A DNA stretch of 64,000 nucleotides, taken from Flavobacteriales bacterium (lineage in GTDB: Bacteria > Bacteroidota > Bacteroidia > Palsa-965). The notes below the pieces were generated by a model, which saw only the letters and a list, made by a program, of their open reading frames with translations, did no database searches and was not told the DNA's origin. The translations under genes were made by a program, and so were the position numbers. Positions 27,431-33,095 of the stretch are shown one piece after another. The stretch covers positions 100,339-164,338 of the forward strand of contig JBEIPA010000012.1 in assembly GCA_040377305.1 (NCBI GenBank), written 5' to 3'. Each line of letters begins with the position of its first letter. The stretch's first letter is position 1.

Positions 27431-27655
27431 TATGTTTTATGTACTCGGTATTAGGGGATTCGGAATCCGGGTTGTTTTTCGCGTGCATCCCGAAAACTGA
27501 TGGGAGAGAAGAAAACAACCGGAATTACTCCGAATCACGTCTCGCAGCACTGGCATGAAGATACTAAACAAAATGCCTGTTTTGGGTAGATATTCACTTA
27601 AATATTGTATGCTTTTGTTGAGATTATTTACATTAGGCGAATAATACTCACATGT

Positions 27656-28726
27656 ATGATTCAATCACTTTTGGTTCGAGGTTTAAATGGAAAATTTGAT
27701 TTGGATCTTAAATTCAATGAGGATATAAACTTACTTACAGGTAAGAACGGATCAAGCAAAACCACCTTGCTTAAACTTATTTGGTTTTTAAACGGTGGGC
27801 AATTAAGCCACTTGCTGAATGAGGTGAATTTTGTTTACGCAGAAATCACTACTTCAAAATACAAGGCCGTTATTGAGAGGGAGTCGGACAAAGGAGTTGT
27901 AAAGTTTCAGCTTAATGACCAAAATCCACAAACTTTCGCCGAAGATCAGGCTCGTCGTTCTGGTTGGATGTTGCCAACTCGATTAAGACGCAGTGCTCAA
28001 GAGTTTAATCAATTTTCAGTACCAACCATTTTCTTTCCAACCTTCAGAAGAATTGAAGGTGGTTTTACAATGGATGGTGCGCGATCTGAGGGGCCGTATG
28101 ATACAAGTATGATTAAAACAGCACTTACCCAGTTGTCAAACTCTCTATCAAAGAATAATCAGAGGTTTGTAGCATCAATATCTACAGATGATTTGGTTTC
28201 ACTAATAACCAAAGAGTATGCTGCTATTACACAGATTATAAATACAATTCAGCAGCGGCATTCGGAGTTAATTATTAATAAAATAAAATCTCGAATTGAG
28301 AACGCTGATGCTCTATTAGAATCTATCCAGAAGGAAATTGAAGAAACAGAAAAGACCAGGCTAGATTTGTTTAAACCCTTCACTGTATTGGCTGAACTTG
28401 TAAAAAGCATTTTCCAGTACAAAGGTATTGCTCTAAGTACTCAGACGTTAGGCGAGGTGGGGGATGCTATTGCGTCAGATAAATTATCAGCTGGTGAGAA
28501 ACAAATGTTGAGTTTTTTGTGTTATAATACTTTCACAAAAAACTCGTCGATTTTTATTGATGAGCCGGAGTTAAGTTTGCATCCTGATTGGCAGCGAATG
28601 TTAGTTCCAACATTGTTGGATCAGGGAAATAACAATCAATTTTTTATGGCGACGCATAGTCCTTTCATTTATGCGAAGTATCCCGACAAAGAGATAATGT
28701 TAGGAAACGATCGAGGTGGAAATTAG
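27656..28726 (+). CDS. ABC-type (AAA_21/AAA_15/OLD-like) ATPase, AriA-like.
   Basis: N-terminal Walker A LLTGKNGSSKTTLLK. A central predicted coiled-coil insertion: NTIQQRHSELIINKIKSRIENADALLESIQKEIEETEKTR. ABC signature LSAGEKQML. Walker B/D-loop IFIDEPELSLHPD. H-loop MATHSP. The ORF-track start at 27605 is a TTG; the first in-frame ATG gives MIQSLLVRGLNGKF. Confidence 0.7.
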   Translation: MIQSLLVRGLNGKFDLDLKFNEDINLLTGKNGSSKTTLLKLIWFLNGGQLSHLLNEVNFVYAEITTSKYKAVIERESDKGVVKFQLNDQNPQTFAEDQARRSGWMLPTRLRRSAQEFNQFSVPTIFFPTFRRIEGGFTMDGARSEGPYDTSMIKTALTQLSNSLSKNNQRFVASISTDDLVSLITKEYAAITQIINTIQQRHSELIINKIKSRIENADALLESIQKEIEETEKTRLDLFKPFTVLAELVKSIFQYKGIALSTQTLGEVGDAIASDKLSAGEKQMLSFLCYNTFTKNSSIFIDEPELSLHPDWQRMLVPTLLDQGNNNQFFMATHSPFIYAKYPDKEIMLGNDRGGN

Positions 28727-28730
28727 AGTT

Positions 28731-29462
28731 ATGGAGATACATTTAACGGTTGAGGAACTCGTACAATACCTTAAAAGATCATCGCTAACGACCATCCTCG
28801 TAGAAGGTAAGGACGATACAATTATATATCGATGGATTGAGGAGGAAGTAGGAATTTCCAAGGTGAATTTTCTGCCATGTGGGGGACGAAATAATTTACT
28901 TCAAGTCTTTGAAAGACGAAGCGAATTTTCTCAAATAAGAACTGTATTTATTGCAGATCAAGATGCATATGTGTATTCTTCTCCTCCGGCACGGTACTCT
29001 GAAATCATTTGGACCGCAGGGTACTCTGTAGAGAATGACCTTTATCAAGGGCGTAGGATAGAAGGAATAATGACGACTAGGGAAGCAGAAGACTTTCAGA
29101 AGGCGCTTGAGAACTTTATACGATATTATGGTTTTGAAGTAGAACAACTTCGGAATAATAATGACTATGACTTAAGTGTTCATCCGTATCATGCGTTGCT
29201 GCCTACACATGATTTGAATCAGGATTTCTTGGATATTAAAGGTTTTGTCGAGCCGAAGCAGGAAACAATTAAGTACTTATTGGACGATTATGATCGACTA
29301 CTGCGCGGGAAATCACTATTCGGACTCCTCGTTCGCTTTTTGAGTGCCCCTCAAAGAGCGGCAAAGTTTAGTAAGATGGCTCTGTGCGAGTTGTGTTACC
29401 GGATGGCAAATAATGGTAATATTGCTCGTATCGTGTCAGAGGTTAATCGCAGAATTGCTTAA
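28731..29462 (+). CDS. DUF4435/TOPRIM-like putative nuclease, AriB-like.
   Basis: ILVEGKDD is a Toprim glutamate motif of the EGxxD type, and FIADQDAY is a Dx(D) motif. An alternative GTG start at 28716 overlaps the ATPase gene by 11 nt. The gene begins 5 nt after, or overlapping, the ATPase stop. Confidence 0.55.
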   Translation: MEIHLTVEELVQYLKRSSLTTILVEGKDDTIIYRWIEEEVGISKVNFLPCGGRNNLLQVFERRSEFSQIRTVFIADQDAYVYSSPPARYSEIIWTAGYSVENDLYQGRRIEGIMTTREAEDFQKALENFIRYYGFEVEQLRNNNDYDLSVHPYHALLPTHDLNQDFLDIKGFVEPKQETIKYLLDDYDRLLRGKSLFGLLVRFLSAPQRAAKFSKMALCELCYRMANNGNIARIVSEVNRRIA

Positions 29463-29541
29463 AATACACGGATGCACAGTTGATGCCGATTCTGCTCAGA
29501 ATTAGCGAACTTAGCCATAACCTTAATCGTACAACAAACCT

Positions 29542-30324
29542 GTGATAGAAAAATACGACCAGATCGGAGTTGGATATAACACCACACGCAAGGTAGATCA
29601 TTACCTGCTGGGTCGTATGATTCACTTCCTGAGAGCAGAAAATACAGGAACGTATCTCGACATCGGATGCGGAACCGGAAACTATACCATTGAATTCAGC
29701 AAACGCGGCGTTCACATGGTGGGCATTGATCCATCGGAAGCGATGTTGAGTATTGCTCGTTCACGCACCAGTACTGTTGAATGGAAGAACGGGAAAGCCG
29801 AGAACATTCCGATGGAAGATGAAAGTGTTGACGGAATTCTGGCTGTGCTCACAACTCATCATTGGACAAATCAGGATAAAGGTTATGCAGATCTTGGTCG
29901 TGTGATGAAGAAAGGAGCGCGACTCGTCATCTTCACTGCAACGCCTGAACAAATGCGGGGCTATTGGCTAAACCATTATTTCCCGACCATGATTCGCGAT
30001 TCGGGAAAACACATGTTGCCCTTTGAAACAATCGAAGCAACACTGAAGAAAGCCGGATTCACAAGCGTGACTTCCGAAAAATATATGGTTACAAACGACT
30101 TACAGGATTTATTCCTTCAGTCGGGCAAACATAATCCGGCGAGTTACCTCGATGAAAATGTCCGTCGCGGAATTTCTTCTTTCGCCACTGCAAAAAATCC
30201 GGATGAGGTAAGCAGCGGACTCAACCAGCTTCGTGAAGACATCGCGACAGGCAAGATTGAAGAGGTGATGAAGAAGTATGAAAGTGAAGTAGGGGATTAT
30301 CTTTTCGTGGCAGCGCAGAAATAA
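29542..30324 (+). CDS. Class I SAM-dependent methyltransferase, small-molecule Methyltransf_11-like.
   Basis: Motif I LDIGCGTGNYT, an acidic post-I residue, and motif II/III DGILAVLTTHHW. No DNA-MTase DPPY/NPPY motif. GTG start. Confidence 0.75.
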   Translation: MIEKYDQIGVGYNTTRKVDHYLLGRMIHFLRAENTGTYLDIGCGTGNYTIEFSKRGVHMVGIDPSEAMLSIARSRTSTVEWKNGKAENIPMEDESVDGILAVLTTHHWTNQDKGYADLGRVMKKGARLVIFTATPEQMRGYWLNHYFPTMIRDSGKHMLPFETIEATLKKAGFTSVTSEKYMVTNDLQDLFLQSGKHNPASYLDENVRRGISSFATAKNPDEVSSGLNQLREDIATGKIEEVMKKYESEVGDYLFVAAQK

Positions 30325-30533
30325 TGTGCTAATGGGTTAATGTGCTAATGGGTTAATGTGCTAGTGTGTTAAAGTCGCAGTAACCAGACTTGTTCTAGTT
30401 CATCCCAGATTGCAATACAAATGGGATCCATTTCAGGGGGATTCCCATCGAGCAAGATAAGTTGATAGTGTTGTACTAATATATGGCCCATCGTTGGTTT
30501 AGCACATTAACCCATTAGCAAATTAGCACATTA
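30323..30533. mobile_element. MITE-like element of ~210 bp with ~35-bp inverted arms. The arms are built from alternating taatgtgc/taatgggt octamers. It sits between two convergent genes.
   Basis: The left arm is taatgtgctaatgggttaatgtgctaatgggttaatgtgcta. The right arm is tagcacattaacccattagcaaattagcacatta, its reverse complement. Both ends abut TAA or TTA stop codons, consistent with TA flanks. Confidence 0.5.
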
Positions 30534-31013
30534 TTTTTTCTGTTCCAGATTAATCTCTGTTACGAAATCTCCGCACACAAACCGAAACTTGTTCTGACCC
30601 CAACGATAAGCTGAAACCGTGTGTTCGTTGGTGAATGAGAATTTCGTTTCTCCACCTTTTGCTTTCTTACTGCTCTTTGTCGACATAACAGGAGTGAAAA
30701 TGTGGACAGCAACCATATTGGCGCTGTCCTTGTTTTCATATTGTTCGCTCACGTGAACTTCACCGATCGATGGTTCGTAACCCACGTTCGTTTTCATCGT
30801 GCCCGTAATGGTGTATGAAATCTTCGCAGTCGTGTTGAGTAAGTTGAGATTATTCTCCACGATTTTCACGGTGAAAGACTCAATCTTTATGTTGGGATTT
30901 TTCGTCCACCAACCGAGCTTGTGCACTTCTTTCACTTCGGTCTTAGCTTTCTTCGGGCCAAAACATCCGCAAAAAAAGGAAACAAGAAAAACGGCAACTA
31001 CGAAATATCTCAT
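30531..31013 (-). CDS. Hypothetical lipoprotein of 160 aa, immediately downstream of flotillin.
   Basis: Signal plus lipobox FFCGCFG. Confidence 0.45.
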   Translation of the reverse strand: MRYFVVAVFLVSFFCGCFGPKKAKTEVKEVHKLGWWTKNPNIKIESFTVKIVENNLNLLNTTAKISYTITGTMKTNVGYEPSIGEVHVSEQYENKDSANMVAVHIFTPVMSTKSSKKAKGGETKFSFTNEHTVSAYRWGQNKFRFVCGDFVTEINLEQKK

Positions 31014-31019
31014 GTCAGA

Positions 31020-32981
31020 TTACTTTTTTGTTGGTGGTGGATTGGTTGGAGATTCTGGAGGCTGAGGCATATCCGTCTTCTCGCTACCCATTTTGCGCGT
31101 AACGTCTTCCAGCAATTTCAATCCAAGCAAACCGCTAATTGGTCCGTTTGGTCCACCGGAGTCTCCGTTTCCGCCGGTGATAAGTACTTCAGGAATAATC
31201 TTGATACGATCGCGACCAATAGCTTCAGTAATCTTGAGTTGGGTGAAATTATCTCCGCCCATCGCAGTTACTGCAAGCTTATATGACTCAGCAGATGATT
31301 TACCAATTGCGAGAATTTTTTCCGCTTCGGCATTACCCGTTACGGTGATTTTTTCTGCTTCTGCATTCGCGAGTGCTTTTACTTTTTCTGCTTCTGCGTT
31401 TGCAATAACTTTTGTTTGTTCAGCAACAGCGATCGAAGTTACTTTCACACGTTCTGCTTCCGCATTCGCGCCGATCTTCACACTTGTCGCTTCACCTTCT
31501 GCTTTCTTAACCGCTGCATCCGCAACACGATTAGCAATCAATACGCCCTGGTCTGCTTTTACAATTTCCTTCTGAATGTCTGCAATCGCAGTTTCTTTCT
31601 CGAGTGCCTGACGCGTCATTTCCGCACGCTTCTGCGTTTCGTATGTCGTGTTCTGTTCTTCAGCAATCTTACGATCGGTAAGTGTTTTCATCAGTTCATC
31701 TGGCGGATTGATATCACCAATGAGCGTATCTACACCATTTACGTTGTATTGTTCAAGTACGTGACCGATGTGTTCACGGGCAGATGTCTGGCGTTCTTTA
31801 CGTGATGTTAGGAATGTAATTACATCCGAATCCTGAGCCGAGTTGCGGAAGTAGTTTCCGATTGTTGGCTCGAGTACCTGACTCACAAGGTTATTCATGT
31901 TTCCGAAACGTGCAATTACTTTCGGCGCTTCCGCTGTAGGGATGTGAATGATCTGCGATACATCGAGGTTGAATGAGAAACCATCTCTCGAGCGTACAGT
32001 GATCGTAGAAAGATGCTTATCGAGTTGGTGTGACTCCGAACGTGCAGCTGCCCAGTTGAGGACGAGGTTGGTTGTAGGAACCAATTCTACTTTCATGATG
32101 TATGGATTCACCGGATATTTTCCCGGACCGTAAGGCTCGCCCCACACACCTTTTTCTCCTTTGGAAACGATGTTGCCATGTTTGAATTCCGCACCACTCA
32201 GATCTTTTCCTTCTGTGCCGGTGTAAGAAATGACAACACCAACGTGACCGATAGGAATCTCCGTCATCTTCACCTGTTCAATCTGAATGAACCAAGGGTT
32301 GAGATAATACGAACCAGCGAGTACGACCTGCGGCTGCAAACCTTTGTTGCCACCGTTGCGCAGGAACGCATCTGCATCCTGGAAGTTGTTGTGTCCTTCA
32401 ACCTGTTGACCGGCGATGTTGCCTTCTGAAATCGGTTTACCGTCGAGCGTCGTAACAACACCAACCATGTTTTCGGAGATGGCGGTCATTCCGTAAATCA
32501 ATACATCAAACAAGTGCGTATTGATACGATATGTTCCTGATGTAAGAATGGCAGACTGACGACCTTTTCTTCCACCGTTACGGATAAATGCTTCTGCATT
32601 CTGAAAAGAATCGCTATCGACTTTGCGTGAAAGAATGTTTCCGGTTTCGAGTTCGGCACCATCTTTCGCAACGAACAACCCAATTTTTCCTTCCGGAATA
32701 ATGGTGAATGGTTGTTGTTTGATTTCATATTGCCAAACCCACAGCCAGAAATAAATTCCCGGTGCCAGTGTTTGTGCCTGGAAACCTGCTTCTCCGTTCG
32801 CTGCAATGATTCGTCCGGGAGGCAATTCTTTGTTAGGTCCAAAGAGCACGAATTTTTTGGTGACCAAACCGATTCTGTCTTCAGGAATAATAATGATTCC
32901 CAGAATGCGGAAAATTACTTTGTACAATACAATGCACAACAGAAGGGCAAATGCCCACCAATAATCGAGAAAAAATTGCAT
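31020..32981 (-). CDS. Flotillin family (SPFH/band-7) protein with an internally duplicated N-terminal region.
   Basis: N-terminal TM. The SPFH region carries a C-terminal flotillin-type Ala/Glu repeat tract: ANAEAERVKV..ANAEAEKVKALANAEAEKITVTGNAEAEK. An N-terminal ~55-aa segment is duplicated, ...FQNAEAFIRNGGRKG... versus ...FQDADAFLRNGGNKG.... Confidence 0.7.
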   Translation of the reverse strand: MQFFLDYWWAFALLLCIVLYKVIFRILGIIIIPEDRIGLVTKKFVLFGPNKELPPGRIIAANGEAGFQAQTLAPGIYFWLWVWQYEIKQQPFTIIPEGKIGLFVAKDGAELETGNILSRKVDSDSFQNAEAFIRNGGRKGRQSAILTSGTYRINTHLFDVLIYGMTAISENMVGVVTTLDGKPISEGNIAGQQVEGHNNFQDADAFLRNGGNKGLQPQVVLAGSYYLNPWFIQIEQVKMTEIPIGHVGVVISYTGTEGKDLSGAEFKHGNIVSKGEKGVWGEPYGPGKYPVNPYIMKVELVPTTNLVLNWAAARSESHQLDKHLSTITVRSRDGFSFNLDVSQIIHIPTAEAPKVIARFGNMNNLVSQVLEPTIGNYFRNSAQDSDVITFLTSRKERQTSAREHIGHVLEQYNVNGVDTLIGDINPPDELMKTLTDRKIAEEQNTTYETQKRAEMTRQALEKETAIADIQKEIVKADQGVLIANRVADAAVKKAEGEATSVKIGANAEAERVKVTSIAVAEQTKVIANAEAEKVKALANAEAEKITVTGNAEAEKILAIGKSSAESYKLAVTAMGGDNFTQLKITEAIGRDRIKIIPEVLITGGNGDSGGPNGPISGLLGLKLLEDVTRKMGSEKTDMPQPPESPTNPPPTKK

Positions 32982-33095
32982 CACAGCGTTTGAGGATAGG
33001 GTGAAATCAAATGTAGATAAACGCGAAAGTTGCCAGTGAAAAGGGAGGCTGAATAGTTACTAACACGAAATCGCTTTTGTTAGTAAATAGATGGA

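Follow-up and report, generated by a model that had tools for sequence, protein, structure and literature searches.

The closest described relative of the locus examined here is PARIS, a class 4 member of the OLD family characterized in the P4-like satellite of Escherichia coli B185 (PDB 8UX9, 8V45-8V49), in which adjacent genes encode the ABC ATPase AriA and the DUF4435/Toprim nuclease AriB. PARIS loci are detected by a simple rule, namely adjacent genes that score at least 32 bits against AAA_15 or at least 27 bits against AAA_21, together with at least 27 bits against DUF4435 (Rousset et al. 2022, PMC9122126). We analysed a gene pair of this kind in a 64,000-nucleotide (nt) stretch of DNA from a Flavobacteriales bacterium (contig JBEIPA010000012.1), hereafter referred to as the window, to which all coordinates refer. 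We judge it likely, and with good confidence, that the block 27585-29486 of this window was acquired by horizontal transfer and forms a self-contained anti-phage module of two genes, of the PARIS type (class 4 OLD family). The block and its two genes are as follows.

27585-29486, no strand assigned: inserted cassette of 1,902 base pairs (bp), delimited by blastn comparison with the empty site of the nearest relative (locus L082), in which homology ends at 27584 and restarts at 29487, and by junction alignments
27656-28726, + strand: gene 1, AriA-like ABC ATPase, 356 residues (the open reading frame as listed, from TTG 27605, has 373 residues)
28731-29462, + strand: gene 2, AriB-like DUF4435/Toprim nuclease, 243 residues, start ATG 28731

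Both open reading frames lie on the + strand, co-oriented, with the ATPase gene first. ATG 27656 is the likely start of gene 1, since it is used by an independent gene call on a public contig of identical sequence and fits the length of the homologues, most of which have 353-358 residues. Gene 1 ends with the stop codon TAG at 28724-28726, and a spacer of 4 nt separates it from the ATG of gene 2; an alternative GTG start at 28716 would give gene 2 a length of 248 residues and an 11-nt overlap with gene 1. Both proteins are shorter than their E. coli counterparts (356 residues compared to 464 for AriA, and 243 compared to about 305-316 for AriB). A scan for sigma-70 promoters returned 7 sites when 6.4 were expected by chance, with a scanner that does not cover Bacteroidota promoters, and no terminator-like site was found 3' of gene 2.

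The pair passes the published PARIS rule: the genes are adjacent, gene 1 matches AAA_21 with 71.2 bits (E = 2e-19) and AAA_15 with 68.2 bits (E = 1.3e-18), both above the gathering cut-offs, and gene 2 matches DUF4435 with 33.2 bits (cut-off 27; E = 5.8e-8). Among the PADLOC models, AriB is the only one to recognize gene 2 (E = 2.9e-9), and each of the 50 relatives sampled for the gene 2 family alignment likewise matches AriB and no other model. Gene 1 matches the PADLOC models of PtuA (E = 4.4e-26) and AriA (E = 2.1e-24) about equally, that of mad3 with E = 8.5e-15, and ATPase-Toprim models as well. NCBIfam gave only far sub-threshold matches for gene 1 and has no family for gene 2.

Among solved structures, each of the two proteins independently selects its PARIS counterpart, and does so by a clear margin. 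When gene 1 was searched as a single sequence against the PDB, AriA of the PARIS cryo-electron microscopy entries was the best match (E = 7e-15), and the profile of the gene 1 family ranked AriA (E = 3.8e-25) well ahead of PtuA (E = 5.7e-12) and GajA (E = 3.5e-7). For gene 2, the AlphaFold2 model built from the family alignment (predicted local distance score, pLDDT, 91; predicted template-modelling score, pTM, 0.87) adopts a Toprim fold with the E...DxD geometry, and the top two Foldseek matches were AriB chains (E = 2.2e-6 and 3.8e-5), followed by the Toprim regions of class 2 OLD proteins. The alignment of gene 2 with the AriB structure extends over 217 residues, the C-terminal domain among them; with OLD and GajA it is confined to the roughly 130 residues of the Toprim core.

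The ATPase motifs of gene 1 were compared with those of AriA in an alignment of 46 family members, in which residue numbers follow the 356-residue form.

27740-27766, + strand: Walker A, GKNGSSKTT, residues 29-37 (K35 corresponds to AriA K39; G29, N31, G32, K35, T36 and T37 invariant)
28184-28417, + strand: coiled-coil hairpin, helices 177-212 and 217-254 (secondary structure of the AlphaFold2 model)
28484-28510, + strand: ABC signature, LSAGEKQML, residues 277-285 (L277-L285 invariant; aligns to LSSGERQLL of AriA)
28556-28588, + strand: Walker B and D-loop, IDEPELSLHPD, residues 301-311 (D302-H309 and D311 invariant; E303 corresponds to the catalytic E393 of AriA)
28649-28663, + strand: H-loop, ATHSP, residues 332-336 (A332-P336 invariant; aligns to CTHSP of AriA)

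The residues of these motifs are thus almost all invariant, and an FPxFR motif that the family has in common with AriA is invariant too; as judged from these residues, the gene 1 family keeps the full ATP-hydrolysis machinery. The AlphaFold2 model of gene 1, also built from the family alignment (pLDDT 81, pTM 0.79), places the two-helix hairpin at residues 177-254. Variable, arginine-rich loops modelled with low confidence are found in the family where AriA has its trigger-sensing region.

The corresponding motifs of gene 2 were mapped onto AriB, the residues of which that bind metal are E26, D30, D88, E90 and E122 (PMC11464382). The mapping used E. coli AriB residues 5-298 and AriA residues 5-446 aligned to the family alignments, and a canonical-length pair from a Pseudoalteromonas plasmid (460 and 310 residues) served as a bridge to both proteins.

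28803-28817, + strand: Toprim glutamate motif, EGKDD, residues 25-29 (E25 and D29 correspond to AriB E26 and D30; invariant)
28953-28964, + strand: Toprim DxD motif, ADQD, residues 75-78 (D76 and D78 correspond to AriB D88 and E90; invariant)
29031-29039, + strand: second acidic cluster, E101-N102-D103 (invariant; E101 corresponds to AriB E122)
29304-29312, + strand: C-terminal motif R192-G193-K194, corresponding to RGH of AriB (R192 and G193 invariant; K194 conserved in at least 90%)

By alignment, gene 2 conserves all five acidic metal-binding positions of AriB. The homology extends beyond the Toprim core, since R192-G193-K194 matches the RGH motif and is collinear with both the E. coli and the Pseudoalteromonas AriB. 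Profiles, fold and residue mapping therefore agree with the initial annotation, made from the DNA alone, which had read the locus as a compact pair of the PARIS type, an ABC ATPase with a DUF4435/Toprim protein. The motifs that it quoted for both genes are all present, the coiled-coil insertion that it predicted is the hairpin described above, and the gene junction and the short length of both chains are as it had them. The searches that it proposed gave AAA_15, AAA_21 and DUF4435 matches above cut-off, a PADLOC match to AriB and a Toprim fold for gene 2 with AriB as the top fold match. Its second suggestion, a split OLD nuclease, holds only broadly, inasmuch as PARIS constitutes class 4 of the OLD family.

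We then turned to the pairing of the two genes in other genomes. A scan of one genome per species recovered 203 relatives of gene 2, of which the best 80 loci were kept; the groups represented are Bacteroidota, Chloroflexota (Caldilineaceae), Poribacteria, Planctomycetota, Acidobacteriota, Verrucomicrobiota, Desulfobacterota and Proteobacteria. In all but one of these loci (79 of 80, from at least seven phyla), the gene 2 homologue is immediately preceded by a homologue of gene 1 (37-57% identity), at a distance of a few to a few tens of bases, and in the sole unpaired locus the gene 2 homologue begins 139 bases from the end of the contig. No third gene linked to the pair across phyla was found when 441 neighbouring proteins from 58 loci were clustered: the largest clusters are nearly all confined to a single lineage, and two small ones, with 7 and 5 members, extend over two phyla and are not adjacent to the pair. 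Cluster representatives are mostly metabolic (ROK kinase, CHAD, epimerase, TIM barrels of the sugar-isomerase type, GH88, Ldh_2). The methyltransferase, DEAD helicase and flotillin that neighbour the pair in the window never stand beside it in the 80 loci.

An exhaustive search with the family profile, over 1.84 billion cluster representatives, gave 781 matches with E <= 1e-3, of which 441 had E <= 1e-30, and nearly all of the best 150 of the 781 matches have 240-265 residues. These counts, together with the uniform length of the best matches, indicate that the compact form is a discrete, sizeable clade. The initial annotation had suggested a compact Bacteroidota variant; the proteins are indeed compact, but the same clade occurs in seven further phyla.

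Several features of the wider clade deserve mention beside its distribution. The compact pair keeps one chromosomal position among metabolic genes in about 20 Poribacteria species (loci L024-L081) and in about 10 Caldilineaceae (L019-L072), which points to prolonged vertical inheritance once the pair had been acquired. Directly upstream of the pair in Poribacteria lies the gene for a conserved 559-residue protein without a Pfam match (median gap 44 bp), and in eight loci of this group a type III restriction-modification methylase (N6_N4_Mtase and TypeIII_RM_meth) follows the cassette by about 110 bp (e.g. L024:10838-12766); this methylase is the only recurring neighbour of a defence type. On a metagenomic contig with Poribacteria-like neighbours (L091:1515-7179), several ATPase/DUF4435 cassettes stand in a row. 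One of the proteins encoded there, P0362 (692 residues; P0361 is similar), carries two tandem compact DUF4435 domains with partly degenerate catalytic motifs and a repeated C-terminal domain of about 60 residues that Pfam does not recognize; such a protein could represent the nuclease as a covalent pseudo-dimer. Two family members of about 695 residues were considered as ATPase-nuclease fusions, a reading that was rejected, as they are tandem DUF4435 duplications with an unrecognized C-terminal repeat; an S1/OB RNA-binding domain suspected in the proteins of this length had no support in Pfam.

The boundaries of the cassette were defined by comparison with the nearest relatives, which lack the pair at an otherwise identical locus. 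The order of genes in these genomes is flotillin, a 160-residue protein, methyltransferase, divergent DEAD helicase, DUF4836 and ABC transporter, with about 140-235 bp between methyltransferase and helicase; the nearest DEAD-box helicase orthologues, 85-93% identical, are from related uncultured Bacteroidota. Compared with the nearest of these relatives, the cassette stands in place of about 36 bp of the helicase-methyltransferase intergenic region, and its guanine plus cytosine (GC) content is 0.37-0.39 compared to 0.44-0.48 in the flanks. No terminal inverted repeats, target-site duplication or integrase were found at the ends of the insert. The empty site in the nearest relatives, the foreign GC content and the patchy spread over at least seven phyla together identify the pair as a mobile accessory module. 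The presence/absence comparison that the initial annotation had called for thus shows the pair to be missing from the nearest relatives; the pair is not part of a syntenic core, and gene 2 does match DUF4435 and the Toprim fold.

The same annotation had taken the neighbourhood for a small accessory islet. This part did not hold: the methyltransferase and flotillin are core genes, because their order is kept in relatives without the pair, and the 160-residue protein is conserved in the same way, so that only the 1.9-kb block is inserted. The genes in question occupy 29542-32984 of the window and encode a class I S-adenosylmethionine (SAM) methyltransferase of the UbiE/Methyltransf_11 type, the 160-residue protein and a Band_7/flotillin protein, in an order conserved in loci L082-L087. 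The insertion leaves about 55 bp of native sequence upstream of the methyltransferase, and since no terminator-like site follows gene 2, the methyltransferase may be read through from the cassette.

Two other features were seen in the flanks. The element resembling a miniature inverted-repeat transposable element, which had been noticed from the DNA alone, proved to be a real 206-bp insertion (30325-30530) located between the convergent methyltransferase and 160-residue genes, and it is separate from the PARIS cassette. It is present in one copy in the window, falls in a stretch that does not align to L082 or L086 (about 30357-30497), and carries terminal inverted repeats of about 45 nt that consist of tandem copies of the 16-mer TGTGCTAATGGGTTAA, and its fold is predicted at -71.7 kcal/mol. 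Outside the insert, the region 27457-27533 upstream of the DEAD-box helicase is partly conserved in L082 and contains two terminator-like hairpins and an inverted repeat (27464-27478/27512-27526, 87% complementary); the helicase gene may have a structured 5' leader here. No tRNA or transfer-messenger RNA gene and no Rfam family at the gathering threshold was found in the window (1-64000).

The pair was then compared with E. coli PARIS. The two have in common adjacent, co-oriented genes with the ATPase first; an AAA_15/AAA_21 ATPase with the Walker A lysine, Walker B glutamate, signature, FPxFR motif and H-loop; a DUF4435 Toprim protein with five metal-binding acidic residues and a C-terminal RG[HK] motif; and the status of an accessory, horizontally moved cassette. 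They differ in that identity is merely 17-24%, and in that the present pair is chromosomal, among core genes, rather than on a phage satellite. The size shortfall of gene 1 is localized to two regions of AriA, IS1 and IS2. IS1 is a putative trigger-recognition element, and IS2 turns the coiled coil of AriA into a helical bundle which, with F230, F234, F238 and Y304, builds the trimer of dimers of the AriA6:AriB3 propeller; in the gene 1 model, a plain two-helix hairpin, shorter than the AriA coiled coil with its IS2 bundle, takes the place of the helical bundle. Gene 2, for its part, lacks four insertions of AriB, and R28 of AriB is conservatively replaced by K27.

A number of observations weigh against the PARIS assignment and are gathered here. 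At the level of sequence, the top PADLOC model for gene 1 is PtuA, slightly ahead of AriA; the DUF4435 match of gene 2 spans only profile positions 6-121 of 238; and 29 of the 50 gene 2 relatives reach about the DUF4435 gathering level. Searched against PDB sequences, both as a single sequence and as the 50-sequence profile, gene 2 gave no match even at E up to 10, and an hhalign comparison of its family with canonical AriB, confined to the Toprim half, returned E = 1.8e-4 and 48% probability. In sequence terms, gene 2 is thus only a distant relative of characterized AriB, and because direct matching to PDB sequences failed, the link between the two was drawn through the Pfam and PADLOC profiles, the fold comparison and the bridging AriB. 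At the level of structural elements, the stretch around IS1 (100 residues in AriA, 104-203) is reduced to 56 residues in gene 1, that around IS2 (again 100 in AriA, 204-303) to 70, and the positions of F230, F234, F238 and Y304 are non-aromatic in gene 1. K60 and K64 of AriB sit in a 7-residue insertion that is missing from all 50 gene 2 relatives; these 'tweezers' grip the tRNA anticodon loop in an AlphaFold 3 model and are needed for defence (PMC12409363). The dimer residues F137 and E285 of AriB are not conserved, their counterparts in gene 2 being T116 and G229, and R31, through which AriB contacts AriA, is not conserved either. As regards context, a search of a phage collection found no carriers of the compact type, a search of a plasmid collection gave two partial matches only, and here the cassette lies outside any recognizable defence island and has no mobility genes.

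The IS2 bundle and its aromatic contacts, K60/K64 and F137/E285 are, as far as known, features of one member, that of E. coli B185, and do not define the family, and Burman et al. describe sensing surfaces that vary between PARIS clades, 11 of which are published. With these points on the scales, we consider membership of both proteins in the PARIS families very likely, and a defence role of the pair likely as well, if with somewhat less assurance. Given that the IS1/IS2, aromatic, K60/K64 and dimer-interface elements are absent or altered, the pair may depart from E. coli PARIS in its stoichiometry, its trigger and its RNA target.

Other two-gene or fused systems of the AAA_15/21 group offer the first alternative, which we regard as improbable: the pair would be a Septu, AbiL or MADS3-4 system, or a class 1/2 OLD nuclease split in two, with DNA rather than RNA as its substrate. 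The PADLOC ranking of gene 1, with PtuA first and mad3 and ATPase-Toprim models also matching, is in its favour, as are the sub-threshold OLD-like_TOPRIM match of gene 2 (18.7 bits compared to the 23.2 cut-off), the OLD Toprim regions that come second in the fold search, and a weak match of the downstream methyltransferase to mad2 (E = 2.8e-17). The partner protein decides differently. Gene 2 has no match in Pfam, at E up to 1, to HNH, RloB (PF13707) or DUF4276 (PF14103), in PADLOC it selects AriB only, and its alignment with AriB takes in the C-terminal domain, whereas that with OLD and GajA is restricted to the Toprim core.

The individual candidates fail in turn. In Septu and in retrons, the partner of PtuA is PtuB, an HNH nuclease, whereas here it is a Toprim/DUF4435 protein; moreover, PtuA proteins are longer (about 465-550 residues) and their profile E-values 13 orders weaker than those of AriA. 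Septu was rejected, as gene 2 lacks an HNH match in Pfam and PADLOC alike. The class 1/2 OLD proteins (P2 Old, Thermus scotoductus OLD, Burkholderia pseudomallei OLD, Gabija GajA) carry ATPase and Toprim in one polypeptide, those of class 2 paired with a UvrD-like helicase, and the known substrate of these nucleases is DNA; here, a stop codon separates two open reading frames, OLD-like_TOPRIM stays below cut-off, and the adjacent DEAD helicase, considered as an OLD-linked helicase, is divergent and belongs to the core genes, being found where the pair is absent. AbiL (the AbiLi ATPase with AbiLii, a RloB protein) and MADS3-4 are closer in layout, in that they combine an AAA_15/21 ATPase from the same tree with a Toprim-related partner in two genes (PMC11464382). 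No RloB match at E up to 1 was obtained, and neither gene 2 nor its 50 relatives match AbiL or mad4 in PADLOC; the mad3 match of gene 1 is weaker than its AriA and PtuA matches. Finally, a MADS-like or restriction-modification-like link through the methyltransferase was rejected, as the similarity to mad2 is limited to the generic SAM-binding domain (profile positions 279-416 of 492) and the methyltransferase is a core gene, never found with the pair in the 80 loci.

According to a second alternative, the pair is a selfish toxin-antitoxin system without a dedicated phage sensor, in which the nuclease would be the toxin, the ATPase its antitoxin, and maintenance would result from post-segregational killing. 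The names given to these proteins lend it some colour, since the PDB depositors call AriA an 'antitoxin' and the Pfam entry for AAA_21 speaks of a putative AbiEii toxin from type IV toxin-antitoxin systems, and a minimal two-gene unit inserted alone among core genes would suit it. AriB alone is reported to be only modestly toxic, however, and to need AriA for its activation, unlike the toxin of a classical pair (PMC11464382). A full ATP-hydrolysis machinery combined with variable loops at the trigger-sensing position is, furthermore, the pattern of a sensor, which a simple antitoxin would not need; we therefore hold this alternative to be quite improbable. The third, a housekeeping role for a Rad50/SMC/RecF-like ATPase and Toprim nuclease in DNA repair, chromosome maintenance or the cell cycle, is very improbable: it has a precedent in the non-defence archaeal OLD-family ATPase Cran1 and agrees with the conserved position of the pair in Poribacteria and Caldilineaceae, but the absence of the pair from the nearest relatives, its patchy distribution across phyla, its foreign base composition, the lack of linked DNA-repair partner genes in the neighbour clustering and the immune nature of the nearest characterized homologues of both proteins all speak against it.

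Returning to the PARIS-type reading, a mechanism can be proposed on the model of E. coli PARIS (PMC11464382, PMC12409363). The gene 1 ATPase would dimerize head to tail around two ATP sites and, as this dimer or as a higher oligomer, would sequester the gene 2 product, presumably an AriB-like two-metal Toprim nuclease, in an inactive state. ATP-dependent binding of a phage-encoded protein to the ATPase would then free the nuclease, and the released nuclease would dimerize and cut host RNA, most likely tRNA. Translation arrest, and with it abortive infection, would follow from this cleavage. Sequestration and release, trigger, RNA target and oligomeric state are all modelled on the E. coli system in this scheme and may differ here. 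That every step is identical to that of E. coli, with a 6:3 complex, tRNA-Lys as the target and an Ocr-like trigger, seems doubtful to us, at best a little short of even.

A further, tentative proposal, in which we place less confidence again, is that the compact clade is a mechanistically distinct 'minimal PARIS' that dispenses with the AriA6:AriB3 propeller in favour of a dimer-based complex, acts on an RNA or a site other than the anticodon stem of tRNA-Lys, and responds to triggers that are not Ocr-like. The complex may be a simple dimer-based one because the ATPase is shorter across IS1/IS2 and lacks the aromatic contacts, and the nuclease may recognize another RNA or site because it lacks both the K60/K64 tweezers and the known dimer interface. 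Such a 'minimal PARIS' would comprise at least about 440 clusters at 50% identity, from many phyla.

What the analysis establishes, then, is the family membership of the two proteins, the conservation of their catalytic residues, their strict pairing and the inserted, accessory status of the cassette. The locus gives a clean and well-bounded example of how an uncultured Bacteroidota lineage acquired PARIS, as an insert of 1.9 kb whose site is empty in sister genomes, and it is otherwise an ordinary defence cassette of the known PARIS family. It also delineates a large PARIS clade of compact form, at the margin of what the Pfam DUF4435 model captures. Existing models already recognize this clade, the members of which are labelled 'AAA family ATPase' and 'DUF4435 domain-containing protein' in public records; a search of the literature for PARIS in surveys of Bacteroidota matched nothing but the name of the city. 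Since only about 58% of the sampled members would pass the original Pfam-based rule, surveys that use it may undercount the clade.

Mechanistic work on PARIS has so far concerned one E. coli system. The compact clade is a natural deletion variant, without much of AriA IS1/IS2 and without the tRNA-gripping loop of AriB, and could for this reason show what in PARIS is indispensable to sensing, to sequestration and to the choice of target. The point of greatest potential interest is whether the missing insertions alter the assembly of the complex and its target.

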